Positions 3,486 through 25,628 of a DNA stretch of 64,000 nucleotides are shown here, piece by piece. The stretch spans positions 25,753 through 89,752 of the forward strand of contig JALHDC010000002.1 of assembly GCA_022840695.1 (NCBI GenBank). Direction: 5' to 3'. The stretch's first letter is position 1; each line of letters starts with the position of its first letter. The DNA is from a bacterium (GTDB lineage Bacteria > Patescibacteriota > Dojkabacteria > SC72). A program made the position numbers and the translations under genes. Below the pieces are notes generated by a model, which worked only from the letters and a program-made list of their open reading frames with translations, was not told the DNA's origin and did no database searches.

Positions 3486-3574
3486 GTAGAGAAACAATCT
3501 CTTTGTATTGGCAGCCTTTATTGATACTAAATCCAAGCTTGAGGTATGGTTCAAGTAGTTCGATAACTTTGTTT

Positions 3575-3793: not shown

Positions 3794-3807
3794 ATTTGAT
3801 TATATCG

Positions 3808-5025: not shown

Positions 5026-5034
5026 TGCTATTTA

Positions 5035-5802: not shown

Positions 5803-7166
5803 AATTCTTTCTGTAATTTTTCCAAGTTATCTAATACCTCTTTAATATCCTTTATACTCTCTTGTATAAGTACTTCCGGTTCTGGAAGATCATCTAAGTT
5901 TCCTAAGCTCTTATCTTTTATCCAAGTGATATCTAAGTTGAAGTTTCTTTTTTGTATATCTTCATATGTAAATTTCTTCCATCTTTCTGTCTCTTCATTT
6001 CTATTCTGGTGTGCATCTTCAAATTCTTTGAAATAGTTTTTTGTTAATCCTTTTGTTTTGGTGATCTTTTCTACATTAGTTCTCATATCGTAGATCCATA
6101 CTTCTTCTGTTCTCTTACCTGTTTTTTCAAAGAAAAGAACGTTTGTTTTCACTCCTGCAGCATATGGTGTAAATACTCCATCTGGAAGTCTTAGGATAGT
6201 ATGTAGGTTGTTATTCTCTAATAATATCTTTCTAATCTTTTGACCATCGTTATCTTCAAAAAGTACATTGTCGGGCATAACCATTGCACATCTTCCTCCG
6301 ATCTTTAGAATACTCATACAGTGTTGTAGGAAGTTTAACTGCTTGTTACTTGTCTGTACTGTAAAGTCGTCTCTGGTGTATTTAGAGCCTCCAGATTTCG
6401 TTCCAAATGGAGGATTGGTTACTATTACGTCGTATGATCCATATCGTTCTTCTAGAGCGTCTCCAAAGCGTATATTGGCCTCTATATCGTGTAGGTAGAG
6501 GTTCATTATGCATAGTCTTCTTGTATCCCAAACAATCTCACCTCCTGATATTGCTTTCTTTTGTAGAAACTCTTGTTCTTCAATACTTAATGCTTTGTTT
6601 TCTTTTTCTAATTTACTAAATATGTGCTCAAATGCTCCAATTAAGAAGCCTCCTGTACCACAAGCAGGATCGTGTATTGTTTCGTTATGTTTTGGATCTA
6701 CACATTTAACTATTGATTTAATTAATTCTCTTGGTGTGAAGTATTGTCCTGCTCCTTTTTGATCAGCTGCAAATTTAGCTAGAAGGCCTTCATATGCTGT
6801 TCCTTTTACATCTATATCAAGTGTCCCCCAGTCGTTTTCGTTTATTAGAAGTATCAGCTTTGAGAGGTTTACTGGATTTCTGAATTTGTTGTTAGATTGG
6901 GAAAATATATCTCCTAATACGTCTTCTTGTTTCCCAAGTTCTCTAAGCATTTCAGAATAGTGTTCTAGAAGATCTGTACCACTATGTTCTAGCAGTGTAT
7001 TCCATTTATATTTTTCTGGTACATATGCTCCTCTTTCATCTGCCATTTTCAAAAAGAGTAGGTATGTCAACTGTTCAATGTAGTCTCCATAGTGCATACC
7101 GTCTGCTTTGAGTACGTTACAGTATCCCCAAAGTTTATTTACTATGTCTGATTCTTGTTGTGTCAT
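5799..7166 (-). CDS. hsdM: type I RM DNA methyltransferase subunit (N6-adenine)
   Basis: NPPFG catalytic motif (VIVTNPPFGTK), AdoMet-binding region, HsdM N-terminal domain. Confidence 0.9.
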   Translation of the reverse strand: MTQQESDIVNKLWGYCNVLKADGMHYGDYIEQLTYLLFLKMADERGAYVPEKYKWNTLLEHSGTDLLEHYSEMLRELGKQEDVLGDIFSQSNNKFRNPVNLSKLILLINENDWGTLDIDVKGTAYEGLLAKFAADQKGAGQYFTPRELIKSIVKCVDPKHNETIHDPACGTGGFLIGAFEHIFSKLEKENKALSIEEQEFLQKKAISGGEIVWDTRRLCIMNLYLHDIEANIRFGDALEERYGSYDVIVTNPPFGTKSGGSKYTRDDFTVQTSNKQLNFLQHCMSILKIGGRCAMVMPDNVLFEDNDGQKIRKILLENNNLHTILRLPDGVFTPYAAGVKTNVLFFEKTGKRTEEVWIYDMRTNVEKITKTKGLTKNYFKEFEDAHQNRNEETERWKKFTYEDIQKRNFNLDITWIKDKSLGNLDDLPEPEVLIQESIKDIKEVLDNLEKLQKEL

Positions 7167-7167
7167 A

Positions 7168-8718
7168 TTATTCTTGTCCTAAAATTATCTTTTCTAACTC
7201 TTGATAAACCTTCATTTCTGGAGTAATTACTTCTGCCAATTTTTGTTTGTATGTCTTTAGGTCAATACTTTTCAAAGTAGGTGTAACAGTGTTTCTAAAT
7301 GTTATACTTAGATCCTTCAGCTCGTCATTGATTATATCTTTAACCAACTTATCATATTCTTCCTTACTCGCGTTATTATCAAGCTTTGAAACCACCTCCC
7401 AGTCATACAAATAGTTCTCAAGCTCTCTTCGTTTGAGCATTCTTCTTTTGGTCGGATTCACTTTAAGCCATTCATCTCTATTCTCATTGTCTCGATCTTT
7501 TAAAACAAAAATTTTTAGTGAATCAAATGCTTTTGCTAATACCTTTAATGCTATCTCAGAATATCCGTCTGGTTCTGTATTTCCTCCGCTTGATACAAAT
7601 AATATCTCTGGCTTCGTTATCTCAAATATCTTGTTATAACAAATAGCGTCTATTCCTCGTTCATCGTCTGTATCATTGCGACCTTCGCAATAGTAAATCT
7701 GCTCAGGAGCTAGGAGGCCAGTTAAGTCCTCCAATGTTATCTTGAACAACTTTTTCCAATTTGCTGGTGTCGTCTTCATAGGGGTTAGTATTTGTTCAAC
7801 ATCGAAATCCTTATCAAAATCTAGCACAATGCTTTTGTCTTTTAGTTCCTTTTGTAGTGCTTGTAAAAAGCCTATGCTATGTGTTGCTATCCACAACTGG
7901 CAATTGTTAGGTACAAGTTTTTCGATCTCTATTAATAAGTTTCTTTGTATAGAAGGATTTATGTGTAGCTCAGGTTCGTCAATGCAAAAGATTGTATCGT
8001 TATAAGCATCTTTTTTGATAATCAAGTCAAGAACAATGTCTAAAACTTCTTTTTCTCCCGAGGAGAGATCTTCATAAGGTATATTTCGTGCTGATCCTTT
8101 ATGAAAGAATAATTGTCCTCTTTTTTCTATGACATTTCCTAAATCTGCCACTGATATATCTCCAAGAATATTTCTTAGTGATTGGTTAATTTGTCCAAGT
8201 AAATCGTTCATAATTTCTTGCCCAGTTTTTGTTCTTGTTACAAATACATCTTTCCAAGCTTTTCCTTGAAGTCTTTCATAGTTCTCTGTTAATCTGGAAT
8301 CTATCTGAGTCATACTTCCTGGTCTGTTTGTATCATTTAACAAGTCTTGCTCTTGTGCTCGTATCTGAGTGATATTTAGAGAAGGAGTATAACGATATGG
8401 AGTCCTAATGTAAAAACTCTTATTATTCAAGGCTGCTGAGTCCTCTCTTTCCACGTTAATGTTGGAATTTCTCGAGTATGAAGCTCCGCTCGGCTCTGAA
8501 CTTGTTACATATAAAGATTTAGACAGATATGTCACTTGAGGATTATAACTAGAGCCCTTATGATTCTTGTTTAACTCTTCAAAGGCGTCAAATACTGAAC
8601 TTTTCCCCGATCCATTGGGGCCAACAAGTGCTACTATTTTAGGTGAGTATCCATCTAAATCAATCTCAAGATTAGTGAAGCGTTTAAAATCTTTCAGAAT
8701 GACCTTCTTAATTCTCAT
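7168..8718 (-). CDS. ABC/SMC-like ATPase fused to C-terminal Toprim-like domain (OLD-family / PARIS AriA-AriB-like or Gabija GajA-like defence nuclease)
   Basis: Walker A GPNGSGKSS, signature-like LSSGEKEVL, Walker B FCIDEPELH, H-loop ATHS; C-terminal YYCEGRNDTD ... VLKDRDNEN resembling Toprim E/DxD motifs; embedded between hsdR and hsdM with overlapping ends. Confidence 0.6.
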   Translation of the reverse strand: MRIKKVILKDFKRFTNLEIDLDGYSPKIVALVGPNGSGKSSVFDAFEELNKNHKGSSYNPQVTYLSKSLYVTSSEPSGASYSRNSNINVEREDSAALNNKSFYIRTPYRYTPSLNITQIRAQEQDLLNDTNRPGSMTQIDSRLTENYERLQGKAWKDVFVTRTKTGQEIMNDLLGQINQSLRNILGDISVADLGNVIEKRGQLFFHKGSARNIPYEDLSSGEKEVLDIVLDLIIKKDAYNDTIFCIDEPELHINPSIQRNLLIEIEKLVPNNCQLWIATHSIGFLQALQKELKDKSIVLDFDKDFDVEQILTPMKTTPANWKKLFKITLEDLTGLLAPEQIYYCEGRNDTDDERGIDAICYNKIFEITKPEILFVSSGGNTEPDGYSEIALKVLAKAFDSLKIFVLKDRDNENRDEWLKVNPTKRRMLKRRELENYLYDWEVVSKLDNNASKEEYDKLVKDIINDELKDLSITFRNTVTPTLKSIDLKTYKQKLAEVITPEMKVYQELEKIILGQE

Positions 8719-11428
8719 TTGGATACCCTCCTTGTAATACTCGCTGATTTACATCTGCAATAACATACTGTAATTCTCCATTAAAATCGGTATTAGCTTT
8801 GTTATACCCACCTTTTCTTTTGAAGGTAAGGAGGTTGTTGAAGTCTTCTTTTTCTACAACAACATTCCTAGTGAGATGATTCTTTACAAGGTTTAACCAT
8901 TGCAATTGTTGTTGAGTGTATTCATCTAATTTCATAGTACTGAAAGCATTATCTACTCTTTCTTGTGGAGATATCAACTCACCACCATATACAGCATATG
9001 ACACAAAAGAGTAGAGGTCTGCATCTGTTTCTTCTTCTATGATCTGTTCTGCGGCTTCTTGTAATCTTCTTTCTGTAAACATTTCAGGAGTATTCTTCAA
9101 TTGCTCTTTTAGTTCGTTAAAAGCTTTTCTAGTGAAGTCTTTTGGATTCTCTAGAAGTATCCTTAATGCTTGTATAGTATGCTTGTTATCGTTTATGTAT
9201 GTTTTAAACGATTCCATGTAGTCTTCAGGTTTTAGATCTCTTCCATCTGTAGTTTTGAAAAGGTACTCAGAAGTTACAATCTTTGCTTGCCTCTCTCTGG
9301 AAACGATTAACCCATCTCTATATCTTGGGTATCTTTTAACAAATGTTATCCAGTTTGCATCTCCCCATCTTTCTAATTCCTGTTCGTTCTTGCTTGATAA
9401 TCTGTCTTGTACTGAGTCTGCAAGTTTTAGTAATCCATCTTTTTCAATTCCGAACCTATCTTCAAGTTCTTGTCTTCCCTCTTCTGTAATGTTTTTATCC
9501 ATTCGTCTTAGCTTGTTTGCTAGAATCTTCGCGTTCTTATCAATATTCGTTTCATTTTCTAATTCTTCTACCACCTCCTCTATGGATTTGGTGTTTGAAG
9601 GGGCTGTAGGCTCCATTACGCCTCCTTCTTTCTGCATAAACTCTATTACCCCCACTGCGTCAAATACTGTGAAATGGGTCTTTCCTATTTCGTTACAAAG
9701 TCTTGTTCCCCTTCCTATAATCTGCTCATAAAGTATTCTTGATCTAATAGGGCGAATTAGTACTAAGTTTTCAACTTGGGGAATATCAACACCAGTTGAA
9801 AGCATATCTACTGAAACAACAATACTTGGCTTCTTTTCGTTTCTAAAATGTCTTATCCAACTATTCGCTTTATCGATTCTGTATGTGATCTTTTGAATCT
9901 CATCTGGATATTTTATCTCTTCTTGTAATAGTTTTACTAATTGATCTGCGTGATCTTCGTTTACTGCGTAGAATATGGTCTTAGGTATTCTTTCGCCCTC
10001 TTTTTTAATGTAGGAGAGCACTTCTTGTACAATTTTTCTGTTTCTATCTTCAACTGTAACTTTTCTTTCTAATGAAGCCGTTTGAATGTTCAATTCATCT
10101 TCTAGGAAGGTACTAAATCTGTATGTACCACCTCTGTCTCTAACTTCTACCGCTTCTCCCTTTTGAAGTTCAATCTCTTTTGCCATATCTATGTCAGTTT
10201 GTATCCTTACAGCGTCAAAGTCTACTAAGTATCCTTCGTGTACTGCTTTTTCGTATGGGTAGTAGTAGATGTCTTTTTCGGTATGACAATCAAAATATGC
10301 TGCAGTATGAGCGGCTGGTGTTGCCGTTAATCCAATTTGATAACTATCGAAATAGTCGAGAACGTATTTCCACTTGTTGTAAATTGATCGATGGCATTCA
10401 TCTGAAATGATTAAGTCGAAGCTATCAATTGGGAAATCTGGATTATATTTGATTTCTGAATCCCCTAACTCTTCCCAGTTCTCATCTTCAATGTCTGTAT
10501 AACTTACTTTTTTTCCTGTTAATGTTGCATATAGTCCCTGTATCGTTGACACATAGACAAATGAGTTTACATTCTGTCGATTCTTCAAATTCTTGAGTTG
10601 TAATTGTTCTGCTCCTAGATCTTTTGGATCTTCGTCTCCTTTAAACAATCTATCAAAATATACTGGATATACAGTGTTAAATTTCTGGCCTGTTACTGGC
10701 TCAAACGTTGAGAATGCTGAGATTGCCTGAGAAGCAAGTGATCTTCTATCAACTAGAAACAGGATTCTTTTGAAATATCCTGTTCTCATTAAGTGATAGA
10801 TCAATGCTGAAGCCATAAAGGTTTTGCCTGTACCTGTTGCCATAGCTACGAGTCCTTTTCTTTTGCCTTCAAGTATTCGTTTAACTGCATACTCGACTGC
10901 TTCCTTTTGGTATTTTCTTAATCCCTTTTGTCCGTACTTCTCTATAACTTGTTCTGTTTCAAGTTCTCTTAGTGCCTCGTTTTTTGAATCTGAGAGCAAT
11001 TCGTTTAATGCTTCTGGTGTATGAAATCCTTTTACTCGTCTTGGTATCGAATTATTGATATGCAATTCTTGGAATGTTATTTCATTTCCGTCTGTACTGT
11101 ATATGAATGGTACTTTGTATTCTCCGTAGAGCTTTGGAAGGTCGATATCTTGGGCGTATCTCTTAGCTTGTGCAATGACTCCTTCTGTTGAGGTGTTATC
11201 CTTCTTGGCTTCTACAATCGCAATTGCTTTGCCATTAAAAGTTAATAAGTAGTCAGCTGGTCCTGAGACTGTTCCAAATTCTACTATTGCGTCTTTACTG
11301 CTATTAGTGAGGTCTTCTTTTGTTCGAGTGACTTTCCATCCAGCGTCTTTTAGAAGTTTATCAATACTATCTTTTCTAGTATTCTTTTCACTTTTGTAAG
11401 TCTTCGTAAATCTGAATGGTAGTTCCAT
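8708..11428 (-). CDS. hsdR: type I restriction enzyme R subunit (endonuclease/helicase)
   Basis: N-terminal PD-(D/E)xK nuclease (IVEAKKD), SF2 helicase motifs MATGTGKT and DECHR, 906 aa. Confidence 0.9.
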   Translation of the reverse strand: MELPFRFTKTYKSEKNTRKDSIDKLLKDAGWKVTRTKEDLTNSSKDAIVEFGTVSGPADYLLTFNGKAIAIVEAKKDNTSTEGVIAQAKRYAQDIDLPKLYGEYKVPFIYSTDGNEITFQELHINNSIPRRVKGFHTPEALNELLSDSKNEALRELETEQVIEKYGQKGLRKYQKEAVEYAVKRILEGKRKGLVAMATGTGKTFMASALIYHLMRTGYFKRILFLVDRRSLASQAISAFSTFEPVTGQKFNTVYPVYFDRLFKGDEDPKDLGAEQLQLKNLKNRQNVNSFVYVSTIQGLYATLTGKKVSYTDIEDENWEELGDSEIKYNPDFPIDSFDLIISDECHRSIYNKWKYVLDYFDSYQIGLTATPAAHTAAYFDCHTEKDIYYYPYEKAVHEGYLVDFDAVRIQTDIDMAKEIELQKGEAVEVRDRGGTYRFSTFLEDELNIQTASLERKVTVEDRNRKIVQEVLSYIKKEGERIPKTIFYAVNEDHADQLVKLLQEEIKYPDEIQKITYRIDKANSWIRHFRNEKKPSIVVSVDMLSTGVDIPQVENLVLIRPIRSRILYEQIIGRGTRLCNEIGKTHFTVFDAVGVIEFMQKEGGVMEPTAPSNTKSIEEVVEELENETNIDKNAKILANKLRRMDKNITEEGRQELEDRFGIEKDGLLKLADSVQDRLSSKNEQELERWGDANWITFVKRYPRYRDGLIVSRERQAKIVTSEYLFKTTDGRDLKPEDYMESFKTYINDNKHTIQALRILLENPKDFTRKAFNELKEQLKNTPEMFTERRLQEAAEQIIEEETDADLYSFVSYAVYGGELISPQERVDNAFSTMKLDEYTQQQLQWLNLVKNHLTRNVVVEKEDFNNLLTFKRKGGYNKANTDFNGELQYVIADVNQRVLQGGYPNEN

Positions 11429-11449
11429 AATGTCTTATTATATCGCAGA

Positions 11450-13747
11450 TTATTGTGTCTGAATAGCCATTTCTGATAGCTTTTGCTCTATTCTGTTCCA
11501 GTCTAAAATTAAATCTAAACTCTGATTCCACCAGTCACTAAATGGCAATTGTGAATCAGTCTTTTTTATTTCACTATATTGTCCAACTCGAAGTGTATCA
11601 GTCGATGGAATATTGTATGTACCTGATTCAGTAATCAACCATCTGTCGTGCAAGGAATTCTTTAATTCTGAATCTAAAATGACACGCATTTCTGCGTTTA
11701 TACCTCTGTAGTTGAGCTCTTCTTTTAAGGTTTTGAACTTTTCTCGAATCTTATGGTCTACTTTATTTATCGAAGTTATAATTTTTACAGAGGAGATTTT
11801 TGAATCTGAGCTTTCTGATATGCTTTCGGATATTAAATCCAAGCCTACGACTGAAAAGTATTTGTCTACCCATTTGATTTCGCCATATTGAGCTTTGATT
11901 ATATCCTTGAGATGTTTTGTATTCGTGTATGGACTTTGTGGTGTTATTAGGATCGTTTCCTTTTGAGCTCCTTCAAAAATGCTTCTTAATTCATTAATGA
12001 TTGTCTTCTTTCTCTCTTGAATGAAGTCATTAAAGTCTTCAGATCCGAAATTTTCTCTCGTCAGTATTTCAATAGCCTTTCTAGAAAGAAGATGTGTTTG
12101 CATTAGATCGTAGAATTGCTCGTCATTTCCGATATTTCTCTTTATCTCGTTGAGGTAATCGCTTGGAAGTCTGTCGCTAATCTTCTTGTTTGTATCATTT
12201 GAAATAGGAGCTTTGTTTAATATCGTATTTATGTCTTTTATTCCGTTTTTCTTACCCCAAGATGCTGGAACAATGTGGTGATCTTCTAATACTGAATACT
12301 CTGGTAGATTGTTTGTATAGAAATCTCTTGCTTCGTTTCTAGCAAACAAACTGAATATTGCATTATATATAGCAGTATTCTGCCTATTCTCTCTAACCAA
12401 ATCTAGATTCTCAATAGTATTAACGGCTCTTTGAACCACATTTGGTGTTATTGAATCGTCTTCTATCCATTTTTTGAGGTCTAAGTAGTCTTTTGTCATT
12501 GTTGATTCAACACTGCTCGAATAACTGTTGGATAGTACAGAAGCCCAATACCATTGTGTAATCTTCTTATCAAAAGCTTGCTGTTTTGTTGAATCGAGTG
12601 ACTCTTTTTCTTTCAGTAGAACAGCGAGAATTGGGGTCATAGTTGGATATGGAATAAACTTTGGTTGAAGTGATCCAAAATCCCTAGGATTCTCGATTTT
12701 TGCTAAAGCCTTTTGAGTATATTGTAAGGCCTCACCCCAGTATTGTGTGAATTCTTCCGGGCTTGTCATAATAACACGTTTCTCTTTTGAACCATCTTCT
12801 TTTCTAATTGTTCTTTGCGTATTAGGCACCAAGTAGTAAAGGTATCTAGGTGAGCAATATCCTTGTAGTCTGATCGACATATACTGAAGAAGGTATATGT
12901 TCATCTTTTCTAATTCCTTGTGGTTATAATTTTCAGAAGCAATTCTCCAGTTTTTCTTAAGCTCAATAGCGTGAGGCTTCAATAACGCGTTGAGAAGATC
13001 GAAGATCGTAAGTTTCAACCCAGATGAGTTGATTTTTGTAAATATATCGCACACCTTTGCGACATCGATGTCCTTTGAAAGCTCTATGTAGCTAATATCG
13101 TAACTATTAAGTAATGATTGGAAGAACTTCTCTAGCTTCTGAACTTTCTCTTCTTTTTCGGTATACCCTTGTTTCTCTAACCAATTTCCATACTGTACAA
13201 CCCACTTATACCATTCAAAGCCTTGACCAAGAAGATAAAGTGGGAATAGTCCTTCTTCGAATTGCTTTTCTAATGGTCCTACAAATTCTTCAGCAGTTCT
13301 TTGTCTTGAAGTATTGTCATTTCTGTACTCAATTGATTCGTCCCAATCGTCTTCTAAAATACTGTTTAGTTTAACAAAGAAATAGAAACGAGTTTTTCTT
13401 TTTGGAAATGGCTCTGTAGGTGGGAAAAATGCATAATGTAGAGCACTAAGTCTCTGTTGTCCGTCTAAAACAATGTGTTGGGCTGTATATTTTAGTTTCT
13501 CTTTATTGATCTTGTTAAATCCGTATATAGACTCACAATTCAGTTTATCGAAGTTTTCTGGGGTTGATCTCCAGAGAAGTAGTGTACCAATGTAATAATC
13601 TGCGAATATTGATTGCAACAATGCTTGTATATCCCAAGGTCCCCATTCAAATTCTCTTTGAAAGTCTGGAATTACATAGAATCCAGAATCTATTGCAGTT
13701 AGTATTTTGCTAAGATTGTCTTTTGACGGAGTCTCTAGGTCTCGCAT
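11450..13747 (-). CDS. DUF262 (ParB-like NTPase) / DUF1524 (His-Me finger) protein, GmrSD/BrxU-like type IV restriction enzyme, with extra C-terminal domain
   Basis: N-terminal FQREFEW and DGQQR motifs; EDHHIVP...N His-Me finger motif; 765 aa with about 200-aa uncharacterised C-terminal extension; first gene of the operon. Confidence 0.75.
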   Translation of the reverse strand: MRDLETPSKDNLSKILTAIDSGFYVIPDFQREFEWGPWDIQALLQSIFADYYIGTLLLWRSTPENFDKLNCESIYGFNKINKEKLKYTAQHIVLDGQQRLSALHYAFFPPTEPFPKRKTRFYFFVKLNSILEDDWDESIEYRNDNTSRQRTAEEFVGPLEKQFEEGLFPLYLLGQGFEWYKWVVQYGNWLEKQGYTEKEEKVQKLEKFFQSLLNSYDISYIELSKDIDVAKVCDIFTKINSSGLKLTIFDLLNALLKPHAIELKKNWRIASENYNHKELEKMNIYLLQYMSIRLQGYCSPRYLYYLVPNTQRTIRKEDGSKEKRVIMTSPEEFTQYWGEALQYTQKALAKIENPRDFGSLQPKFIPYPTMTPILAVLLKEKESLDSTKQQAFDKKITQWYWASVLSNSYSSSVESTMTKDYLDLKKWIEDDSITPNVVQRAVNTIENLDLVRENRQNTAIYNAIFSLFARNEARDFYTNNLPEYSVLEDHHIVPASWGKKNGIKDINTILNKAPISNDTNKKISDRLPSDYLNEIKRNIGNDEQFYDLMQTHLLSRKAIEILTRENFGSEDFNDFIQERKKTIINELRSIFEGAQKETILITPQSPYTNTKHLKDIIKAQYGEIKWVDKYFSVVGLDLISESISESSDSKISSVKIITSINKVDHKIREKFKTLKEELNYRGINAEMRVILDSELKNSLHDRWLITESGTYNIPSTDTLRVGQYSEIKKTDSQLPFSDWWNQSLDLILDWNRIEQKLSEMAIQTQ

Positions 13748-13886
13748 TGTAATTCCTCGCTAAAATTACTTTTATAAGGATATCAGAAAAGGCTGTATTT
13801 GAACAGAAATACAACTGTGTATTCATCGTACTAGCACTCTCTCTCAGAGTTTGCTAAAATAATTAATAACTTTTCAATTTAGCTTT

Positions 13887-14201
13887 ATGTCTAAAACACA
13901 ATCACACATAAGAGCCCAGTCTAAGGCTGCAGGTAAAGAGGGAAAACAGGAAGTCTCCTTATCTCGAAATAGACGACTAGATGCGGTTACAAAGTCTGGG
14001 TCTCGAGCAACAGAGATTGAAAGAAGTGGAAATCCAAAACTTCTTGAGAAAGCGGCTCAGAGATTAGGAGATAGACGTTCAAGTCAGAAGGTCTTGCAAG
14101 TTCCTCAGTCAGATATGGGATTAGCTACTGCCGCAATGCGAAAAAAGGAAGTCCACGGAACAGTTAAAAATATGTCAGGCACAAAGAGGAGATCTGTATA
14201 A
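13887..14201 (+). CDS. doubtful ORF (basic 104-aa product) within a GC-rich anomalous block; may instead be noncoding
   Basis: uses codons rare for this genome (CGA, GCG, ACG, GGC); local GC far above window average. Confidence 0.15.
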   Translation: MSKTQSHIRAQSKAAGKEGKQEVSLSRNRRLDAVTKSGSRATEIERSGNPKLLEKAAQRLGDRRSSQKVLQVPQSDMGLATAAMRKKEVHGTVKNMSGTKRRSV

Positions 14202-14364
14202 AGTTGGAGTCCTCGCTTCCTTCTAAGTTTTAGAGCTTATAATCGAGCTTTATATAAGGCTTAGTCTTACTTTCAGCAATGATCAAATCCATCTCTTCCT
14301 GAACCTTTTTAACTTGTTGGAATAGCGGTATTAGTACCTCTTCGACAAATTGGAGAAGTTTGAA

Positions 14365-14378
14365 ATCTTCCACCCCAT
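14365..14378. repeat. attR-like direct repeat ATCTTCCACCCCAT
   Basis: identical to 3472-3485 (tRNA-His 3' end). Confidence 0.7.
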
Positions 14379-15016: not shown

Positions 15017-15064
15017 TATTTTCCATTGACCTTCCATATCCCCATATATATACTAAATTTAGTA

Positions 15065-16147
15065 ATGAAATATACATATTTAGAATATATATCAAAAAAT
15101 ATTAAATCCCTAATACATAACAAATATATTCTTAAAATACTTGTAACTCTCCTTCTCACTCTCTGTGTATTTGAAACACCACTTCTTCTTAGCTATATAA
15201 AAACCAAAGATCAAACCTCTGAACAAAAGATTGTTGAAACAAATAAAGATGAGAAATTAGATGAGGACATATCAGTACCTGAAGATGTAGAACAACAGGA
15301 AGAGGAAGTACCAGAAAAGATAGAGGAAAAAGCGAATACTACACCAAGCTATCCATCTAAACAAACCAATACAGAAATAGAGAAAGAAGAAATACCTACT
15401 GAGACTCCAATTGAACAACCTCCACAAGAACAACCAGTTGAAGAACCACCAATACCTGAATCCCCAAGTGCAGTTGTTGCATTCTATGCTGACACACAAT
15501 CAGATACTGATCAAGAAGATTTAAATCATCAAAGAGTGGTTAATTACATATTAAGTTCTGGAGGTAATCCTGTATTTCATGCAGGAGATGTTATGGAAGA
15601 TGGTACACAGGCTAGTTTAGACAGATTTAATACCGTTACCTCTACATTAAGATCTACAAGAACCTTCTATGCGGCATTAGGGAATAATGATAGGGCAGTG
15701 GGAGATTCTAGTACACCTTCACAACTATTTTTAGATAATTTTGTATTTCCAAATAATGAAAGATGGTACTCTGTAAACTATGGTAATCTACATTTGGTTG
15801 TATTAGATAGCGCTTTTGGATCTGGTAATGTTACACAATTAAATTGGCTAACTAATGACCTTCAGAGTAGTAATTCACAGAATAGAATAACAGGAGTTAT
15901 GTATCATCATCCTACATTTGCAAGTTCAATATCTTCATATTTAATTAATTATGGAGTAGATTTTGTAGTAGCAGGACATATACATTCGTATGGTCATTCT
16001 ATAAGTAATGGTATTAACTACTTTACACTCAGTGGTCAACCTTCCATAGGATACATGGTAGCTAGAATATACTCGGACAAAGTATCCATTACTGTATACA
16101 ATAGTAGCAATGCTGTAATAGATAGTATTGAGTTCAATGAGAGGTAG
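15065..16147 (+). CDS. membrane-anchored metallophosphoesterase (calcineurin-like) with Pro/Glu-rich linker
   Basis: GD (HAGDVMEDG), GNND (GNHD-like), GHIHSYGH motifs; N-terminal TM; E/P/Q-rich low-complexity spacer; ATG 15065 preferred over TTG 15026. Confidence 0.6.
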   Translation: MKYTYLEYISKNIKSLIHNKYILKILVTLLLTLCVFETPLLLSYIKTKDQTSEQKIVETNKDEKLDEDISVPEDVEQQEEEVPEKIEEKANTTPSYPSKQTNTEIEKEEIPTETPIEQPPQEQPVEEPPIPESPSAVVAFYADTQSDTDQEDLNHQRVVNYILSSGGNPVFHAGDVMEDGTQASLDRFNTVTSTLRSTRTFYAALGNNDRAVGDSSTPSQLFLDNFVFPNNERWYSVNYGNLHLVVLDSAFGSGNVTQLNWLTNDLQSSNSQNRITGVMYHHPTFASSISSYLINYGVDFVVAGHIHSYGHSISNGINYFTLSGQPSIGYMVARIYSDKVSITVYNSSNAVIDSIEFNER

Positions 16148-16153: not shown

Positions 16154-16921
16154 CTACGGTCTCAATGTTCCTCCAAATACCTGCCATGCTAACAATGTCT
16201 TAGCTACAAGACTTAATACAATATATGCTTTTTCTCCATATAGATAATCCTTCCACTTCCCAACCTTCTTGTATTGTAAAAACATATTAATTGCAAAACT
16301 ATTAAAGAATAGGAATATACTTACATATATCCAATACACAAAATTAGGGATATCACCTCCACCAACCTCTGTTATGGAATAAACATATATACCAAACACT
16401 ACCCAAGGAACAATACCAGCTATACAACCTAATACAAAGGTTAACCAATTAACCTTCTCCTTCCCAGTATTATGTACCTCCATAGCCAAACCAGTTAAAT
16501 TCATTAATGCATCTAATGCAAAAATCATAACCAAACTAGCTAAATCATATATACCTGTTAAAAAACTAATTGCTAACATCATTACACTTGCACTAAAAGC
16601 ATACTCAAACCATCTAACTCTATTTATACCAACCTTTAGATCCTCCTCATACTTCCTTCTATACACAGTTGATATGAATAGGTGAGCAAAAGCACTCATA
16701 AAGAAGAATGTAGCAACAAACCATGCTATATTAACCTCTGTAATCTGCTCTGTCATAGGAAGAAGCTTCTGTAACTCCAAATCATATTTTAAATAGTTTA
16801 CCGTTATTGGAACAATTCCTTTTTCTGGATCACTAAGAAGAAGGACAACAATACCCTGAACAAGGTGAAAGAGTCCCATTACAAGATTGAAGATTCTTAA
16901 ATTCTTTAATTTCTTCTCCAT
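16154..16921 (-). CDS. heliorhodopsin (retinal-binding 7TM protein with inverted topology)
   Basis: strong similarity along the full length to heliorhodopsin 48C12-type sequences: FHLVQGIVVLLLS, RWFEYAFSASVMMLAI, GCIAGIVPW, SIFLFFNSFA, YIVLSLVAKTLLAWQVFGGT (Schiff-base Lys conserved). Confidence 0.85.
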   Translation of the reverse strand: MEKKLKNLRIFNLVMGLFHLVQGIVVLLLSDPEKGIVPITVNYLKYDLELQKLLPMTEQITEVNIAWFVATFFFMSAFAHLFISTVYRRKYEEDLKVGINRVRWFEYAFSASVMMLAISFLTGIYDLASLVMIFALDALMNLTGLAMEVHNTGKEKVNWLTFVLGCIAGIVPWVVFGIYVYSITEVGGGDIPNFVYWIYVSIFLFFNSFAINMFLQYKKVGKWKDYLYGEKAYIVLSLVAKTLLAWQVFGGTLRP

Positions 16922-17083
16922 ATATACTTAACTAAAATTATATACATACAGTATATGGCATTCTAACTGAAAAACAAAATATCTGGTATAATCAAACTAC
17001 AATGAAAAACATTAGATATACATACATACATCATATATAGCACCTTTGGTGTATATTTTGTCGTATATATATCAAAGGAATAC

Positions 17084-17109
17084 AAAAGAACCAAACGGTT
17101 CTTTTTTTT
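17084..17109 (+). terminator. intrinsic-terminator-like hairpin (9-bp stem AAAAGAACC/GGTTCTTTT, loop AAAC, T8 tail) in the hisS 5' leader
   Basis: seen in sequence between an extended -10 (TGgTATAAT at 16984-16992) and the hisS start; possible attenuator or bidirectional terminator. Confidence 0.4.
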
Positions 17110-17142
17110 GTTAATATGTAATATAACTTAAGATATAGAGAT

Positions 17143-18438
17143 ATGAAAAATAATATAAATACACAACCAATGCCAGGATTCATGGAACTACTACCACAAC
17201 AACAGATGGTATTTAATAATATGATCAAAACCATAAGGGAGGTATATGAGCTATATGGATTTAGACCAATAGAGACACCGTTATTAGAACGATCAGAGGT
17301 CCTTTTGGCAAAAGGAAGTGGAGAAACAGATAAACAAATATATAGATTTAAAAAAGGAGATGCAGATATATCCCTTAGGTTTGACTTAACAGTACCATTA
17401 GCTAGATATGTAGCAAACAATCAAAATGATTTGGTATTTCCATTCAAGATAGGGAACATTGGTAAGGTATACAGAGGAGAAAAACCACAAGCAGGAAGAT
17501 TTAGAGAATTCTATCAATGTGATTTCGATGTAATAGGCAGAGAAGAATTACCAATATCATATGATGCAGAGATAGTAGCAATGATATATCAAATGTTTAC
17601 TAAATTAGGATTAAACAATTTAAAAATTAAAATCAATAACAGGAAAGTATTAAATGGATTCTTTAGAAGTCTAAGTATTTCCAACTCTCAAGATATTCTT
17701 AGAATAATAGATAAGATTGAGAAAATTGGAAAAGGAAAAGTAGAGGAAGAATTAAAAGGTATAGGAGTATCAAAAGATACTGTAGAAAAAATCTTAAATT
17801 TCTTGAATATAAAAGAGGATGTTGTAAAAAAGTTAAAAAATTTAGACATAGAAGATGAAGAGTTCAAAAAAGGAGTAGAAGAATTAGAGTATGTACAAAA
17901 TCAGGTTGAGATATTTGAAATACCAAAAGAAGCATTTGAAATAGATTTAACTATTGCAAGAGGATTAGACTACTATACAGGAACTGTATACGAAACAATC
18001 CTAAACAACTATCCTAATTTTGGTTCAGTATGCTCTGGTGGAAGATATGACAACCTTACATCCTTCTATACTTCTAATAACTATCCAGGAGTAGGGTGTA
18101 GCATAGGCCTTACAAGGCTATTTGATTGTTTACTAAAAAATAATCTTCTTGATATTAAAACAGAAACAGATACCCAACTTCTAGTTATAGGTATGGATGG
18201 ATACGAAAACAATGCTACAAAATTAGGAACTGATTTAAGAAAAGAAAATATCAATACAGAAGTTATGAATAGCCTAAAGAACGGTCTTAAATATGCAAAC
18301 AGATTAAAGATACCTATTGTTGTGATAATAGGGGAACAAGAAGCAAAGAGTAACAGCTTTACTGTAAAAGATATGAATAGTGGTCAACAAAGTACTTTAA
18401 AATATGATGCTTTATTAAAATATCTTAGAGCTAATTAA
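17143..18438 (+). CDS. hisS: histidine--tRNA ligase
   Basis: class II aaRS motifs (GRFREFYQCDFD, GGRYDNL) and C-terminal anticodon-binding domain. Confidence 0.9.
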   Translation: MKNNINTQPMPGFMELLPQQQMVFNNMIKTIREVYELYGFRPIETPLLERSEVLLAKGSGETDKQIYRFKKGDADISLRFDLTVPLARYVANNQNDLVFPFKIGNIGKVYRGEKPQAGRFREFYQCDFDVIGREELPISYDAEIVAMIYQMFTKLGLNNLKIKINNRKVLNGFFRSLSISNSQDILRIIDKIEKIGKGKVEEELKGIGVSKDTVEKILNFLNIKEDVVKKLKNLDIEDEEFKKGVEELEYVQNQVEIFEIPKEAFEIDLTIARGLDYYTGTVYETILNNYPNFGSVCSGGRYDNLTSFYTSNNYPGVGCSIGLTRLFDCLLKNNLLDIKTETDTQLLVIGMDGYENNATKLGTDLRKENINTEVMNSLKNGLKYANRLKIPIVVIIGEQEAKSNSFTVKDMNSGQQSTLKYDALLKYLRAN

Positions 18439-21136: not shown

Positions 21137-22180
21137 ATGGAAGAAAAGAATTCTTCTAATTCACTTCTAATTGGAGTGATACTTCTTCTGCTTGTGGCAG
21201 CTGGAGTATATTTTCTCTTTCTGAAAGATTCTCCTGAGAATGAGGAAGAGGGTAAGGATACAGTTACTTTGCAACTTAAATGGATTGAGCAAGCTCAGTT
21301 CATGGGCTTTTTAGTTGCTAGAGAGCTTGGATACTACGAGGATGAAGGTATAGATATTGAGATACTACCAGGAGGAGTTGGTATTAATCCAATAGATGTC
21401 CTAATTGCTGGAGATGCAGATGTAGCTGTAGCATGGACGGGTAATGTACTACCAGCAATATCCCAAGGTGAAGAGTTAGTAAATATTGGACAAGGATTAC
21501 AAAGATCTGCAATGAGATTAATGGCATTAAAAGAAAGTGGTATAGAAAACCCAGAGGATATAGAAGGAAAAAAGATTGGAACATGGCCAGGTGGTAATGA
21601 ATTAGAGCCATATGCATTCATAGAGATGCAAGGATTGGATAAAGATAGAGATGTTACATTGGTAAGTCAGAATTTTGATATGAACCAATTACTAAATGGT
21701 GAAATAGATCTTGCCTCTGCAATGATTTATAACGAATATTGGCTACCAATAGAGCAAGGATATAATGAAGATGATTTCACAGTATTTGATATGGAAGAAG
21801 AGGGTGCAGGCATGCTACAGGATGCTTTATTTGTTAAAAAAGATTTCTTAGATAACAATGAAGATCTTTTAGTAAGATTCCTTAGAGCAAGTATAAAAGG
21901 ATGGGAGTATGCTATAGCAAATCCCGAAGAAGCTGTAGATTTAATGAAATTAGATTTTACTGCTAATGATGTAACTGCAAAAGATCATCAAATTAGAATG
22001 GCACAAGAAACAGCAAAACTATATCAATCTGATGATGGAGCTAGTAAAGGTCTTTTCTACATAAATGAAGAAAAGCTTCAACAAACTGTAGATATTGCTA
22101 CAGAGTATATTGAGGAAGTAAAGAATATAGATATTTCCAAGATATATACTTTGAGTATATGGGAGAAAGCTATACAGTAA
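21137..22180 (+). CDS. ABC transporter substrate-binding protein, NMT1/THI5-like (pyrimidine/sulfonate-type)
   Basis: N-terminal TM anchor, LQLKWIEQAQFMGF...GYYEDEGIDIEI characteristic of NMT1/THI5-like periplasmic binding proteins. Confidence 0.7.
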   Translation: MEEKNSSNSLLIGVILLLLVAAGVYFLFLKDSPENEEEGKDTVTLQLKWIEQAQFMGFLVARELGYYEDEGIDIEILPGGVGINPIDVLIAGDADVAVAWTGNVLPAISQGEELVNIGQGLQRSAMRLMALKESGIENPEDIEGKKIGTWPGGNELEPYAFIEMQGLDKDRDVTLVSQNFDMNQLLNGEIDLASAMIYNEYWLPIEQGYNEDDFTVFDMEEEGAGMLQDALFVKKDFLDNNEDLLVRFLRASIKGWEYAIANPEEAVDLMKLDFTANDVTAKDHQIRMAQETAKLYQSDDGASKGLFYINEEKLQQTVDIATEYIEEVKNIDISKIYTLSIWEKAIQ

Positions 22181-22824
22181 TGAAAAACCTTACTCTTCTT
22201 ACAAATCCAGTTATACAAAGCATTGGATTGAAACTTCATGATAAGGATAACAATCCTCATGAATATAGGGAGTATGCCAGATTATTAGGTCTATACATGG
22301 GTATAGACCTTTCTGGTAGAAGTATACTACCTACAAAAAAAGTTATTTGTAAAACACCACTTGGCTCACTCACATCAGAGGTTATAGATGACAATAAAAT
22401 AGGAATAGTGAATGTATTAAGAGCTGGGACTGGTATGGCATTGGGAGTAGGGGAAGCATTTCCTGAAAGCTGTATTGCCTTTATATCTGCATGGAGAAGA
22501 CAGGAAAACAATACTATTATTGCAGACACGGATTACAATAGAGGGATAGAGGATTTAGATAAAAAAATTGTAATTATAACAGATCCTGCCTTGGCATCTG
22601 GTTCTTCCATACTAGCCTGTATCGATGTAATACATAAGAAAGTAAAACCTAAGAAAATAATAATATGCTGTTTACATGCTGCAACTGAGGGTATAAAAAA
22701 TATAAGAAAGGAGTATCCTGATATTAATATATACTCTGTATTTGGACCTAGTGATTTAAACGAAAAATTCTATATCGTAAATGGTCCTGGAGATTGTGGA
22801 GATAGAAGCTTTAATACAAAGTAG
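22180..22824 (+). CDS. upp: uracil phosphoribosyltransferase
   Basis: PRPP-binding signature VLRAGTGMALGV and ITDPALASGSS; start ATG overlaps SBP stop (TAATG). Confidence 0.85.
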   Translation: MKNLTLLTNPVIQSIGLKLHDKDNNPHEYREYARLLGLYMGIDLSGRSILPTKKVICKTPLGSLTSEVIDDNKIGIVNVLRAGTGMALGVGEAFPESCIAFISAWRRQENNTIIADTDYNRGIEDLDKKIVIITDPALASGSSILACIDVIHKKVKPKKIIICCLHAATEGIKNIRKEYPDINIYSVFGPSDLNEKFYIVNGPGDCGDRSFNTK

Positions 22825-22848: not shown

Positions 22849-23316
22849 ATGAAAGTGCTAGTAAGTGCATGTCTGTTGGGCATTAATAGTAGATATGATG
22901 GTAAAAACAAATTTAATAAAGATCTTCTTTCTTTTTTAATTAATAACAACATAGATTTTTTTCCTCTTTGTGCAGAGCAACTAGGAGGCTTAACAACTCC
23001 AAGAGAACCATCTGAGATAGAGTATGGTTTTACAGCTCAAGATGTTATTGAGGGTAGAGGAAGAGTATTAACAAAAAGTGGAAAAAATGTTACTAAGAAT
23101 TATATCGATGGAGCAAATGAGGTATTAAAATTTTGCAAATCTATAAATATTACTCATGCTATATTAGCTGAAAAAAGCCCGTCTTGTGGATATACAAAAA
23201 CATATGATGGAACATTTAGTGGGATATTAATAGATGGTAATGGAATACTTACTCAATTACTCAAAAACAATGGAATTGCGATTGTAAAAGATATGCAAGA
23301 TTTAAACAAAAGTTAA
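22849..23316 (+). CDS. DUF523 protein, TudS-like (thiouracil desulfidase family, [4Fe-4S])
   Basis: MKVLVSACLLG N-terminus; three Cys positioned as in TudS cluster ligands (SACLLG, FPLCAEQLGG, SPSCGY). Confidence 0.6.
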   Translation: MKVLVSACLLGINSRYDGKNKFNKDLLSFLINNNIDFFPLCAEQLGGLTTPREPSEIEYGFTAQDVIEGRGRVLTKSGKNVTKNYIDGANEVLKFCKSINITHAILAEKSPSCGYTKTYDGTFSGILIDGNGILTQLLKNNGIAIVKDMQDLNKS

Positions 23317-24625: not shown

Positions 24626-25024
24626 TTAATGATGATGCTCTTCCTCAGCTTTCATTGCATCTTCTCTTGTAGCATGTACTGTACCCTCTGGGTGATTTGC
24701 AGGAGCATAGATTGTGTATAGCTTTAAATCTCCATCTCCTACATTGATAACATTATGCTTAGATCCTGCGGGTACTATAGCAACCATGTCTTCTTTAACT
24801 ATATTCTCTTCACCATCTATAACGAATTTTGCTTCTCCTTCTTCTACTCTAAAGAACTGATCAACTGTATCATGAACCTCTTCGCCTATATCTTCACCAG
24901 CCTTAAGAGACATAACTACTAATTGCATATGACTACCTGTAAACAATACTTTTCTGAAATTAGAATTTTCTAATGTCTTTTCCTCAATATTATCTATGTA
25001 TCCCATGATTAATAAATATAACAA
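24626..25024 (-). CDS. cupin domain protein
   Basis: 132 aa, conserved cupin barrel motifs, His-rich C-terminus. Confidence 0.55.
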   Translation of the reverse strand: MLYLLIMGYIDNIEEKTLENSNFRKVLFTGSHMQLVVMSLKAGEDIGEEVHDTVDQFFRVEEGEAKFVIDGEENIVKEDMVAIVPAGSKHNVINVGDGDLKLYTIYAPANHPEGTVHATREDAMKAEEEHHH

Positions 25025-25085: not shown

Positions 25086-25628
25086 TTAACCAAATACCTT
25101 TTTAATTAATACCTTCTGTCTTTTAAATAGTGGGTGCTTTTTATCCGTATTAGCTATTATACTTTCATATACATTTCTGTGATACCATTCCTGATCTTCT
25201 CTTCCTCTTTTGAACTTACTCCATACCTCTTCTCCTTCTCTTTGTAAATCAATATATATTGATTCTAGATTATTTATCTTATCTGCACATTCGACTAACT
25301 TTACTTCTATACCTGCATCTTTAACATGATCTATTGTTTCCTGTTTTCTAACTTTCCAAGGCAAACTCTTATCTGATTCAGATACACCATCTACAATATT
25401 AGCTATTTTTTTACCAAATCTTTTCTCAATATCTTCCTTGGTATATGGGGTATCTTCTATAACATCATGTAATAGTCCAGATATAATAATATCATCACAA
25501 CATCCAGCTCTCTGTAATATCATTCCTACTGTAAATGGGTGAAATATCATTGCAACATCTTCCATCTTCCTATTTTGTCCATTGTGTGCCTTAGTTGCAA
25601 AATATATTGCTTTCTCTACCTTATCCAT
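25086..25628 (-). CDS. HD-domain (p)ppGpp hydrolase-like small alarmone hydrolase (Mesh1/RelA-SpoT HD type)
   Basis: AHNGQNRKMEDV...IFHPFTV...LLHDVIEDT motifs matching the RelA/SpoT hydrolase HD domain; 180 aa, no synthetase domain. Confidence 0.7.
   Translation of the reverse strand: MDKVEKAIYFATKAHNGQNRKMEDVAMIFHPFTVGMILQRAGCCDDIIISGLLHDVIEDTPYTKEDIEKRFGKKIANIVDGVSESDKSLPWKVRKQETIDHVKDAGIEVKLVECADKINNLESIYIDLQREGEEVWSKFKRGREDQEWYHRNVYESIIANTDKKHPLFKRQKVLIKKVFG

Follow-up and report, generated by a model that had tools for sequence, protein, structure and literature searches.

A canonical heliorhodopsin in a Candidatus Dojkabacteria genome and an orphan protein family as its candidate partner

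We found that the heliorhodopsin (HeR) gene of a bacterial MAG, assigned to Candidatus Dojkabacteria (CPR/Patescibacteria), is a canonical, intact and ordinary member of the known heliorhodopsin family. Its product probably acts as a non-pumping photoreceptor that uses exogenous retinal, signals to a partner protein and serves photo-oxidative protection. What was observed, in the window (the whole 64-kb stretch of DNA that was analysed) and in comparisons with related loci, is the identity of the gene, its integrity and context, the conservation of its residues and the purifying selection on it. The window is AT-rich (31.5% GC), as the preliminary description of this DNA had it, and carries the gene at the following position:

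16154..16921, minus strand: heliorhodopsin (HeR) gene, 255 aa, seven hydrophobic segments, Pfam and NCBIfam match

The open reading frame (16154..16921, minus strand) starts with ATG and runs unbroken through 255 aa. The protein matches the Pfam profile Heliorhodopsin (PF18761) with an E value of 1.2e-94 and 316.6 bits (cut-off 26.7), and the alignment places residues 8-253 on profile positions 1-242 of 242, which is the full length. The NCBIfam equivalog NF038020 "heliorhodopsin HeR" is matched with 325.7 bits (cut-off 100). Among homologues that carry a name in NCBI, the closest are annotated as "heliorhodopsin HeR [Candidatus Dojkabacteria bacterium]", with 71-82% identity, and the best solved relatives are TaHeR (6is6, E 1.3e-74) and 48C12 (6su3, E 7e-53). 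As to other rhodopsins, the type-1 profile PF01036 (Bac_rhodopsin) gave no match at E <= 0.01. Type-1 rhodopsins have a DxxxK motif where HeRs have SxxxK, with the Schiff-base lysine in helix 7; a single Glu in helix 3 is the HeR counterion. The assignment of the protein to the type-1 microbial rhodopsins was rejected, since it carries SxxxK and not DxxxK, a Glu and not an Asp counterion, and no PF01036 domain.

The motif VLSLVAKTLLAW, in which the preliminary description had placed the Schiff-base lysine, is found in the protein; its Lys, at residue 241, falls on the Schiff-base Lys241 of 48C12 in the alignment. This lysine lies in S237-L-V-A-K241, in which S237 and K241 align with Ser237 and Lys241 of 48C12. 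The counterion position is Glu106 (Glu107 in 48C12), and both His19 (His23 in 48C12) and His80 are kept. With the list of 48C12 residues taken from PMC7049168, 27 of the 29 residues called structurally important in 48C12 are identical, the exceptions being Q213M and S242T; E106, H19, H80, N12, Y91, N100, R103, Y107, S76, S110 and E230 are the same in both proteins. The fenestration and carotenoid-site residues F162, C166, G169, F206, N207 and A210 are likewise identical to those of 48C12, as judged from sequence register only by the criteria of a preprint (10.1101/2025.11.27.691015; 48C12 positions 162, 166, 169, 206, 207 and 210). Across 79 CPR homologues, Lys241, Glu106, His80, Ser237, Asn100, Trp104 and Tyr107 are invariant. 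HeRs span the membrane with seven helices in an inverted topology, with the N-terminus in the cytoplasm. Here, the seven hydrophobic segments are accompanied by Lys/Arg-rich stretches at 1-9, 88-103, 150-156 and 217-231 and by an acidic loop at 184-192, a charge pattern that, on the predicted segments, fits an N-terminus-inside (inverted) topology. Taken together, these results bear out the earlier claim of a full-length heliorhodopsin with 48C12-type motifs; a lost lysine or a broken frame, which had been named as grounds against it, was looked for, and Lys241 is kept in an intact reading frame.

The gene is under purifying selection, with a dN/dS of about 0.05-0.19 against Dojkabacteria orthologues at saturated dS. 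The strength of this selection indicates that HeR is in use in those lineages. An identical protein is found on GCA_022839185.1, where the gene order is unchanged, and identical proteins occur on 8 contigs from different samples. For a wider comparison, 80 related loci were available, all labelled as CPR or unclassified bacteria except for two short contigs that were binned with other phyla (L020 and L023).

The surroundings of the gene consist of the following features:

15026..16147, plus strand: metallophosphoesterase, calcineurin-like and membrane-anchored (PF00149)
16922..17142: HeR-hisS intergenic region of 221 bp, presumed to hold the HeR promoter and the hisS leader
17084..17105: terminator-like hairpin in the hisS leader
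3472..14378: defence island at tRNA-His, with type I R-M (HsdS/M/R), Abi_C, an AAA ATPase and GmrSD

A direct repeat of 14 nt, ATCTTCCACCCCAT, from the tRNA-His 3' end marks both borders of the defence island (3472 and 14365), and HeR lies 1.8 kb outside this tRNA-His-integrated element. In other strains, a different cassette replaces the island while HeR and the phosphoesterase stay in place, which confirms the earlier reading of HeR as a native gene just outside the island. These results also bear on whether HeR is non-functional, be it an ORF that arose by chance, a pseudogene or foreign DNA inserted recently as part of the island. Its GC content (33.2%) is slightly above that of the backbone (30.6%), and a mobile island is 1.8 kb away, as a foreign insertion would have it. 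However, the ORF is intact over its full length with family scores far above the cut-offs, the same protein recurs on 8 contigs from different samples with dN/dS well below 1, the boundary repeat at 14365 leaves HeR outside the island, and strains with a different island keep the HeR locus. We therefore regard a non-functional HeR as refuted for practical purposes, with only a negligible chance of being correct.

As had been described, HeR is convergent with the membrane metallophosphoesterase, their stop codons being separated by 6 bp. With this convergent gene on one side and the divergently transcribed hisS on the other, HeR is monocistronic. The HeR ATG is preceded, at about 15-20 bp, by a TATAAT-like box, with no clear Shine-Dalgarno sequence; a promoter scan upstream of HeR gave a signal no higher than the shuffled expectation. 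An Rfam E-value scan of 16850..17250 found nothing near any gathering score, and a structured RNA upstream of HeR and hisS was dropped, as no Rfam family was above threshold. An NMT1-type ABC importer lies 1.8 kb from HeR on the opposite strand. In tblastn searches, the metallophosphoesterase, HisRS, DUF167 and the NMT1-type ABC transporter were found near HeR in 0 of the 80 related loci, and these neighbouring genes were rejected as HeR partners on that ground. The metallophosphoesterase is kept beside HeR only among strains, and since it is absent near HeR in all 80 related loci, its pairing with HeR carries no functional signal. Other genes do occur beside HeR elsewhere. Eight Saccharibacteria loci have MsrA two genes upstream of HeR; an SDR-type epimerase precedes HeR in L010 and L012 and is found three genes upstream on the opposite strand in L035. 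A small cupin gene is present in 11 of the 80 related HeR loci; as an HeR-linked gene it was judged to be weakly above expectation and was rejected, six of the 11 loci being mutually close relatives.

At the Pfam level, no blh or crt (carotenoid or retinal) genes were found in the 64-kb window, nearly all called genes being covered, in agreement with the preliminary description. The only Lycopene_cycl match was below threshold and fell on the Rossmann motif of an HI0933-like flavoprotein. Retinal synthesis by the host is almost certainly impossible, given the genes absent from the 64-kb window. Rhodopsin-bearing Saccharibacteria, which are related CPR, are also without blh and probably import retinal, and external retinal is bound rapidly; TaHeR takes retinal through an opening, and its own organism is also without a retinal pathway (PMC9296517).

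We infer from these data that retinal is imported from an exogenous source and that HeR acts as a sensor, without pumping, through a partner protein. All-trans retinal would be held covalently on Lys241 with Glu106 as the counterion, and His19, His80, Ser76, Ser110 and Ser237 would line the Schiff-base cavity. The retinal, and possibly a xanthophyll antenna too, would be obtained from neighbouring or host cells and enter by way of the lateral fenestration, the lining residues of which are conserved. Light would then isomerise retinal and lead, in a slow photocycle, to a long-lived intermediate with no ion pumping, and the conformational change of HeR would be read by a partner protein as a light-dependent switch. 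Most plausibly, this switch would help to protect an oxygen-sensitive fermenter from photo-oxidative or near-UV damage. HeR is transcribed alone, so that no operon in this genome points to its partner. For the HeR family, light sensing is the role that can best be inferred.

HeRs have been reported absent from diderms, and a monoderm-type host would be expected. In this window, we found a glmS ribozyme, LiaF/PspC-type envelope-stress genes and peptidoglycan genes; no outer-membrane genes were found among the genes of the 64-kb window, which covers part of the genome only. In related Saccharibacteria loci, a sortase adjoins HeR. The window also contains two genes for anaerobe-type oxygen defences:

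45449..45832, minus strand: desulfoferrodoxin
63172..63393, minus strand: rubredoxin-like domain protein

The preliminary description had linked these proteins to light sensing. The desulfoferrodoxin and rubredoxin-like genes are indeed there, but they lie 29-46 kb from HeR, and the link is one of co-residence in the genome only. A stress-related role has been proposed in the literature: HeRs were suggested to be light sensors for photo-oxidative stress in monoderms (PMC8612252), and a survey of 80 HeRs in Saccharimonadia and 7 in Dojkabacteria reported the SLVAK motif and proposed a role in oxidative stress (Chiriac et al. 2022, PMC9166423). HeRs in Dojkabacteria, rhodopsin-bearing Saccharibacteria without blh and the stress-sensing idea have thus already been published (PMC9166423, PMC8612252 and PMC9296517), so that the earlier interpretation is largely right and the novelty that it implied does not stand.

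Against a sensory HeR, the protein is without an operon partner here and its immediate neighbours are not conserved; nor is the benefit of a light sensor in dark, anoxic places obvious. MAGs with close homologues carry names such as AnMBR.bin348, AS06rmz..., CG22_combo, nzgw507 and Zod_Metabat, and the names of many close relatives suggest, insofar as habitat can be read from a name, dark and anoxic sources (anaerobic membrane bioreactor, anaerobic digester, aquifer, sulfidic spring). HeR may be light-independent or a relic in such habitats, binding or scavenging retinoids or carotenoids, or regulating a partner independently of a chromophore. Close homologues in MAGs whose names refer to anaerobic reactors, aquifers and a sulfidic spring (habitat as read from the names), strong purifying selection in those lineages and the anaerobe-type oxygen defences of the genome all favour this idea. 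However, every retinal-binding and photocycle residue is invariant in the 79 CPR homologues, which is what selection for photochemistry predicts, and the source names of the MAGs would also fit populations exposed to light, as in open tanks, in surface water or in biofilms. Moreover, no HeR is known to have a light-independent function, and we consider such a function unlikely here.

The cellular HeRs tested so far reportedly show no ion transport (Pushkarev et al. 2018), which speaks against HeR being a light-driven or light-gated proton transporter that, possibly with a carotenoid antenna, supplements fermentation. A transporter is conceivable in that proton transport by a viral HeR is on record (cited in PMC11109279 and PMC12873467) and most HeRs are argued to carry a carotenoid-binding site, the residues of which are present here (preprint 10.1101/2025.11.27.691015). 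In the same preprint by Kornilov, several HeRs of subfamily 2, a mainly viral group without the carotenoid site, are reported to have been shown to transport ions; in contrast, the HeR studied here has the carotenoid site and is closest to TaHeR. In addition, its extracellular half appears, from sequence identity, to be as hydrophobic as those of 48C12 and TaHeR. Taken together, these results make proton transport very improbable, and a sensory, non-pumping HeR remains the reading that we prefer.

For a sensory HeR, comparative gene context points to one candidate partner, which we call c12:

27249..27755, plus strand: uncharacterised 168-aa protein "c12", basic (pI 9.3), rich in aromatic residues, soluble and very conserved

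The gene lies 10.3 kb from HeR in the window, within an 11-kb stretch that holds HeR, c12, TudS-UPRT, a small alarmone hydrolase-like HD protein and the small cupin. In four other CPR lineages, c12 orthologues directly adjoin HeR, in four different arrangements. Elsewhere, c12 is operonic with TspO, RudS/TudS, MsrA-MsrB and rubrerythrin, and the family also adjoins SDR-DUF2867 genes in other bacteria. RudS genes have been reported in light-responsive operons (PMC11417400), and the position of c12 beside TspO or RudS/TudS suggests a role in light or oxidative stress. The family comprises more than 2,400 clusters at 50% identity. It has no match in Pfam (even at E <= 10), NCBIfam, PHROGs or, by phmmer, the PDB; the matches from a PDB profile search were all at chance level (E >= 0.6), and no fold match was found among solved structures. 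The AlphaFold model of c12 is confident (pLDDT 96.6) with diverse representatives in the alignment and reaches 52 with a shallow alignment. Longer homologues are fused to DUF5872, DUF6582 or a STAND NTPase, which are uninformative partners. In addition, 80 unrelated metagenome loci carrying c12 were inspected, and HeR was found within 6 kb of c12 in 0 of the 80, which rules out a general co-localisation of the two genes. The link between HeR and c12 is thus lineage-restricted and rests on four lineages. At a distance of 10.3 kb in this genome, c12 would be a candidate partner or co-regulated gene and no demonstrated part of a system, and among the genes considered in their comparative context it is the best candidate for an HeR partner. 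A broader proposal, which we put forward as a long shot, is that the c12 family may be an unrecognised cytoplasmic component of bacterial responses to light and photo-oxidative stress, and an effector or partner of HeR in CPR.

By itself, this HeR is one more uncharacterised heliorhodopsin in a catalogued group and adds little. CPR bacteria are attractive test cases for HeRs, since genomes as tiny as theirs offer only a few candidate partners, and the adjacency of HeR and c12 provides a testable partner hypothesis that is absent from published neighbour classifications. If this link is confirmed, HeR would be connected with a defined component downstream of it, and a very large family of orphan proteins would gain a function.

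Compared with known systems, the HeR-partner systems with glutamine synthetase, photolyase and the OmrDE ABC exporter (PMC11109279) share the proposed mode of action, in which a light-activated HeR binds and modulates another protein. Of the neighbour classes listed there (GS, NAD+ synthetase, photolyase, MerR, TerC, ABC transporter, SDR, alpha/beta hydrolase, DUF2177 and DUF2238), 0 of 10 are adjacent to HeR here. The CPR HeRs of PMC9166423 share the taxon, the SLVAK motif, a reduced fermentative genome and the proposed oxidative-stress role, whereas the local gene neighbourhood differs between the HeR studied here and its closest relatives. The founding member, 48C12 (PDB 6su3/6su4 and 6uh3), is 44% identical and has in common Lys241, Glu107 (here Glu106), His23 (here His19), His80, Ser237 and the fenestration and carotenoid-site residues; it differs in Q213M, S242T and the loops, and comes from a freshwater actinobacterial fosmid, while the present HeR comes from a CPR genome whose examined region is without respiratory and carotenoid genes. 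The closest solved relative is TaHeR from Thermoplasmatales archaeon SG8-52-1 (PDB 6is6, 7clj and 7u55), with 51% identity over 244 aligned residues. The two proteins are alike in length class, in the SLVAK lysine motif, in the counterion Glu and in a Met where 48C12 has Gln213, and the host of TaHeR, like CPR bacteria, is reported to be without a retinal pathway (PMC9296517). TaHeR is archaeal, whereas this HeR is bacterial (CPR) and has a helix 5-6 loop that is 5 residues longer and a first extracellular loop that is longer by 2 residues. At the two positions reported to tighten the fenestration, it has Ile170 and Phe203 as in 48C12, in contrast to Phe and Ala in TaHeR (PMC7049168).

The open reading frame at 16154..16921 (−) is intact, starts with ATG and encodes 255 amino acids. 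Pfam Heliorhodopsin (PF18761) matches its product end to end (E 1.2e-94), and the NCBIfam equivalog 'heliorhodopsin HeR' scores 325.7 bits, where the cut-off is 100. Among solved structures, the best match is the archaeal TaHeR (6is6, E 1.3e-74), followed by the founding member 48C12 (6su3, E 7e-53), with identities of 51% and 44%, respectively. A residue map taken from the HMMER alignments shows that 27 of the 29 residues singled out in 48C12 by Kovalev et al. (PMC7049168) are identical in the window protein. The two proteins agree (48C12 numbering), among other positions, at the Schiff-base Lys241, Ser237, His80, Ser76, Ser111, Asn16, Asn101, Arg104, Tyr108, Glu149, Glu230, Gln216 and Trp246, while the 48C12 counterion Glu107 corresponds to Glu106 here and His23 to His19; they differ at Q213M, which is common to TaHeR, and at S242T. 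They are also identical at positions 162, 166, 169, 206, 207 and 210 (48C12 numbering), the residues by which the Kornilov preprint (10.1101/2025.11.27.691015) defines a lateral fenestration and carotenoid site. Hydropathy gives seven hydrophobic segments, and the distribution of Lys and Arg fits an N-terminus-inside topology. Taken together, these results indicate, at the level of sequence, a heliorhodopsin (HeR) in every respect. The preliminary description had claimed full-length similarity and a Schiff-base Lys, and both are borne out by the family matches and by Lys241 aligned to 48C12; neither loss of this Lys nor a frame disruption, which it named as refuting, was seen.

An identical HeR protein, with the same neighbouring genes, is encoded on JALHFM010000006.1 (GCA_022839185.1) and on seven more contigs from different sequencing runs, and relatives that are 71-82% identical carry the name 'heliorhodopsin HeR [Candidatus Dojkabacteria bacterium]'. 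Relative to JALHFM010000006.1, the window reaches about 4.3 kb past the contig start, and so derives from a longer assembly of the same strain or a near-identical one. When one genome per GTDB species was scanned, 80 related HeR loci at 50-84% identity were returned. Their labels are CPR (Dojkabacteria, Saccharibacteria, WWE3, Woesebacteria, Woykebacteria, Berkelbacteria) or unclassified bacteria, with the exception of the short contigs L020 (SLPE01000048.1, 'Candidatus Izimaplasma') and L023 (LNGD01000252.1, 'Candidatus Methanofastidiosum'); the HeRs of these two are 75-80% identical to the Dojkabacteria protein, and they are probably mis-binned CPR contigs rather than HeRs of the named taxa. 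Dojkabacteria-type HeRs at >80% identity also occur in many loci labelled 'uncultured Candidatus Saccharibacteria'. Across 79 CPR homologues, Lys241, Glu106, His80, Ser237, Asn100, Trp104, Tyr107, Gln216 and Trp246 are invariant, and His19 is kept in 77. The dN/dS between the window HeR and Dojkabacteria orthologues is 0.05-0.19 (Nei-Gojobori), with synonymous sites saturated. HeR is under strong purifying selection, at precisely the residues that retinal photochemistry needs. Many related MAGs seem, from their isolate names, to come from dark, anoxic places, which suggests a light-independent role, but this invariance of the photochemical residues contradicts it.

The genes on either side of HeR are as follows.
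15026..16147, membrane metallophosphoesterase, convergent with HeR
17143..18438, hisS, divergent from HeR
The stop codons of HeR and the metallophosphoesterase are 6 bp apart, in agreement with the convergent arrangement described earlier, and a 221-bp spacer separates HeR from hisS; HeR is thus a single-gene unit. The metallophosphoesterase carries a membrane anchor at its N-terminus and, at roughly residues 60-150, a long low-complexity linker rich in Glu, Pro and Thr; an antisense 75-aa ORF at 15272..15499 was rejected as an artefact of the linker's repeat composition. In the HeR-hisS gap, some 40 nt before hisS begins, lies a perfect 9-bp-stem hairpin (17084..17105) that is followed by a T-run on both strands; this candidate attenuator or bidirectional terminator has no match to an Rfam family such as T-box.

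The 3′-terminal 14 nt of tRNA-His (ATCTTCCACCCCAT, at 3472) are repeated at 14365, with a chance expectation of about 0.0015 for such matches in both stretches compared. These direct repeats flank a stretch of about 10.9 kb (3472..14378) that encodes type I R-M HsdS/M/R, an Abi_C protein, an AAA ATPase and GmrSD, and that has a GC content of 35% versus 30.6% in the backbone (31.5% for the window). The defence island integrated at tRNA-His is real. In the strains of the related HeR loci L003 and L005, a HinfI-type R-M system occupies the island slot, together with a serine recombinase in the longer L003 contig, and neither strain differs in the HeR-phosphoesterase pair. As had been proposed, HeR lies outside the island, 1.8 kb beyond the boundary repeat at 14365, and the locus is kept where the island differs. 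The family scores, the identical protein on other contigs, the dN/dS and this island boundary refute the reading of HeR as a non-functional gene.

Carotenoid and retinal synthesis Pfam signatures are absent from the called genes of the 64-kb window, nearly all of which were scanned, as had been noted for blh/crt genes; the Pfam scan gave a single sub-threshold Lycopene_cycl match (50597..51931), which covers only the dinucleotide-binding motif of an HI0933-like flavoprotein. Rhodopsin-bearing Saccharibacteria without blh have been described, external retinal is bound rapidly, and heliorhodopsin occurs in other organisms without a retinal pathway, with retinal entering via an opening in the apoprotein (Jaffe et al., PMC9296517). 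The conserved fenestration residues of the window HeR are consistent with such an external-retinal route. With 31.5% GC, genes for peptidoglycan and envelope stress, and none for respiration, the window is in keeping with a reduced, fermentative CPR genome. Further features of this organism are listed here.
214..351, glmS ribozyme (Rfam RF00234, 47 bits versus a gathering score of 37), directly upstream of glmS
379..2166, glmS
45449..45832, desulfoferrodoxin
63172..63393, rubredoxin-like domain protein
The glmS riboswitch is thus shown in a CPR genome. Co-occurrence of desulfoferrodoxin and the rubredoxin-like protein had been taken to suggest light sensing; both genes are present, but their link to HeR goes no further than co-residence in one genome. 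What the preliminary description observed was correct in all checkable details.

When 18 window proteins were compared with the 80 loci by tblastn, the metallophosphoesterase, HisRS, DUF167 and the NMT1-ABC component were near no other HeR. Clustering the ORFs of the HeR loci de novo, with all ORFs included, revealed a recurrent Saccharibacteria block, MsrA/DUF427/sortase - HeR - RsmE/RumA/PD-(D/E)XK/SerRS. Eight loci (L044, L045, L052, L062, L079, L084, L087, L088) have MsrA (methionine sulfoxide reductase) two genes upstream of HeR; of these, six have the upstream DUF427, five a divergent sortase and five RsmE or RumA directly downstream. The block is partly or largely housekeeping synteny, but MsrA fits the oxidative-stress association that the literature proposes. 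The small cupin of the window has counterparts near HeR in 11 of the 80 loci, six of which are close relatives of one another, a recurrence judged weakly above expectation. The nearest Dojkabacteria relatives of the window encode a 166-168-aa protein without a Pfam family immediately 3′ of HeR on the same strand; the gap is 1-16 bp in L012, L013, L016 and L021, and a tiny ORF intervenes in L010 and L014. The 168-aa gene is immediately upstream of HeR in L071 and L083 (cupin, IPP-isomerase-like Nudix, 168-aa, HeR, with one opposite-strand ORF between cupin and Nudix in L083 only), two genes upstream in L035 and convergent in L032. Judged by HeR identities, these pairings represent four separate lineages with four arrangements, and we estimate that chance adjacency of a single-copy gene in a genome of ~900 genes would be expected in well under one of the 80 loci. 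The gene order in L010, L012, L013, L014 and L021, the closest Dojkabacteria relatives, is HeR, 168-aa protein, IscS, then NifU and MnmA (tRNA 2-thiouridylase) where the contig reaches; MnmA is visible in L010, L012 and L014, and only IscS in L013. The IscS-NifU-MnmA block of the window is separate (40337..42892).

The window orthologue of the 168-aa protein is 87% identical and lies 10.3 kb from HeR, with an S66 peptidase, a dCTP deaminase, an HD_4 protein and a small cupin as neighbours.
22159..22824, UPRT, adjoining TudS
22849..23316, stand-alone TudS/DUF523 thiouracil desulfidase
between TudS and the small cupin, DEAD helicase
24626..25024, small cupin
25086..25628, HD_4 RelA/SpoT-hydrolase-like protein
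27249..27755 (+), 168-aa protein
The family has no Pfam match even at E <= 10 and none in NCBIfam, PHROGs or PDB (phmmer), and a PDB profile search gave chance-level matches only (E >= 0.6). This family is huge and unusually conserved: a word-index search returned at least 8,000 candidates, the best 120 all at 74% identity or more, and the family spans 2,408 clusters at 50% identity. It also occurs in larger genomes, e.g. on a 2.9-Mb contig. The protein is basic (pI 9.3) with many invariant Arg, Trp and Tyr, and AlphaFold with a diverse alignment confidently predicts a beta-hairpin at the N-terminus and then a helical domain (pLDDT 96.6, pTM 0.91). In 80 metagenome loci with the 168-aa gene, HeR was never seen within 6 kb, so the link is specific to some CPR lineages. 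TspO/MBR is near the 168-aa gene in five metagenome loci, with gaps of 0-13 bp in three, and TspO is associated with porphyrin photo-oxidation. RudS/TudS/DUF1722 is nearby in L089, L096, L157 and L161, and probably in L126, where its placement comes from the cluster representative only; other neighbours are Fur-family regulators, SDR-DUF2867 fusions, an MsrA-MsrB fusion, rubrerythrin, DUF1295 and lipocalin. RudS removes UVA-sensitive 4-thiouridine from tRNA, and its genes are reported to share light-responsive operons with those for photolyase or carotenoids (PMC11417400); the literature links relatives of TudS/RudS to UVA responses. These neighbours and the window TudS suggest a theme of light and oxidative stress, which matches the published HeR hypothesis for monoderms and CPR (PMC8612252, PMC9166423). 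Since this is guilt by association with small counts, the tie is a lead, not a finding.

In the best-supported account, HeR would bind retinal taken from other cells, absorb visible light, form a long-lived intermediate without pumping, and modulate a partner protein. The first three steps draw on family knowledge and the complete conservation of the relevant residues. The rival role as an ion transporter or energy harvester is at odds with the report that ion transport is shown only for members of the mainly viral subfamily 2, which is without the carotenoid site (10.1101/2025.11.27.691015). Partner modulation by HeR is proposed from published cases in which HeR has glutamine synthetase, photolyase or the OmrDE exporter as partner (PMC11109279). 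None of the ten HeR neighbour classes of that study adjoins the window HeR, and among possible partners in this genome only the 168-aa protein has comparative support.

Seven HeRs with the SLVAK motif have been reported in Dojkabacteria (PMC9166423), an oxidative-stress sensing role has already been proposed (PMC8612252, PMC9166423), and close relatives are already named by the NCBI pipeline. Given these reports and the blh-less Saccharibacteria, the HeR finding is correct and already known. Mildly interesting beside these known systems are the recurrent HeR/168-aa pairing and the purpose that a strictly conserved photoreceptor may serve in lineages that come largely from dark anaerobic systems.
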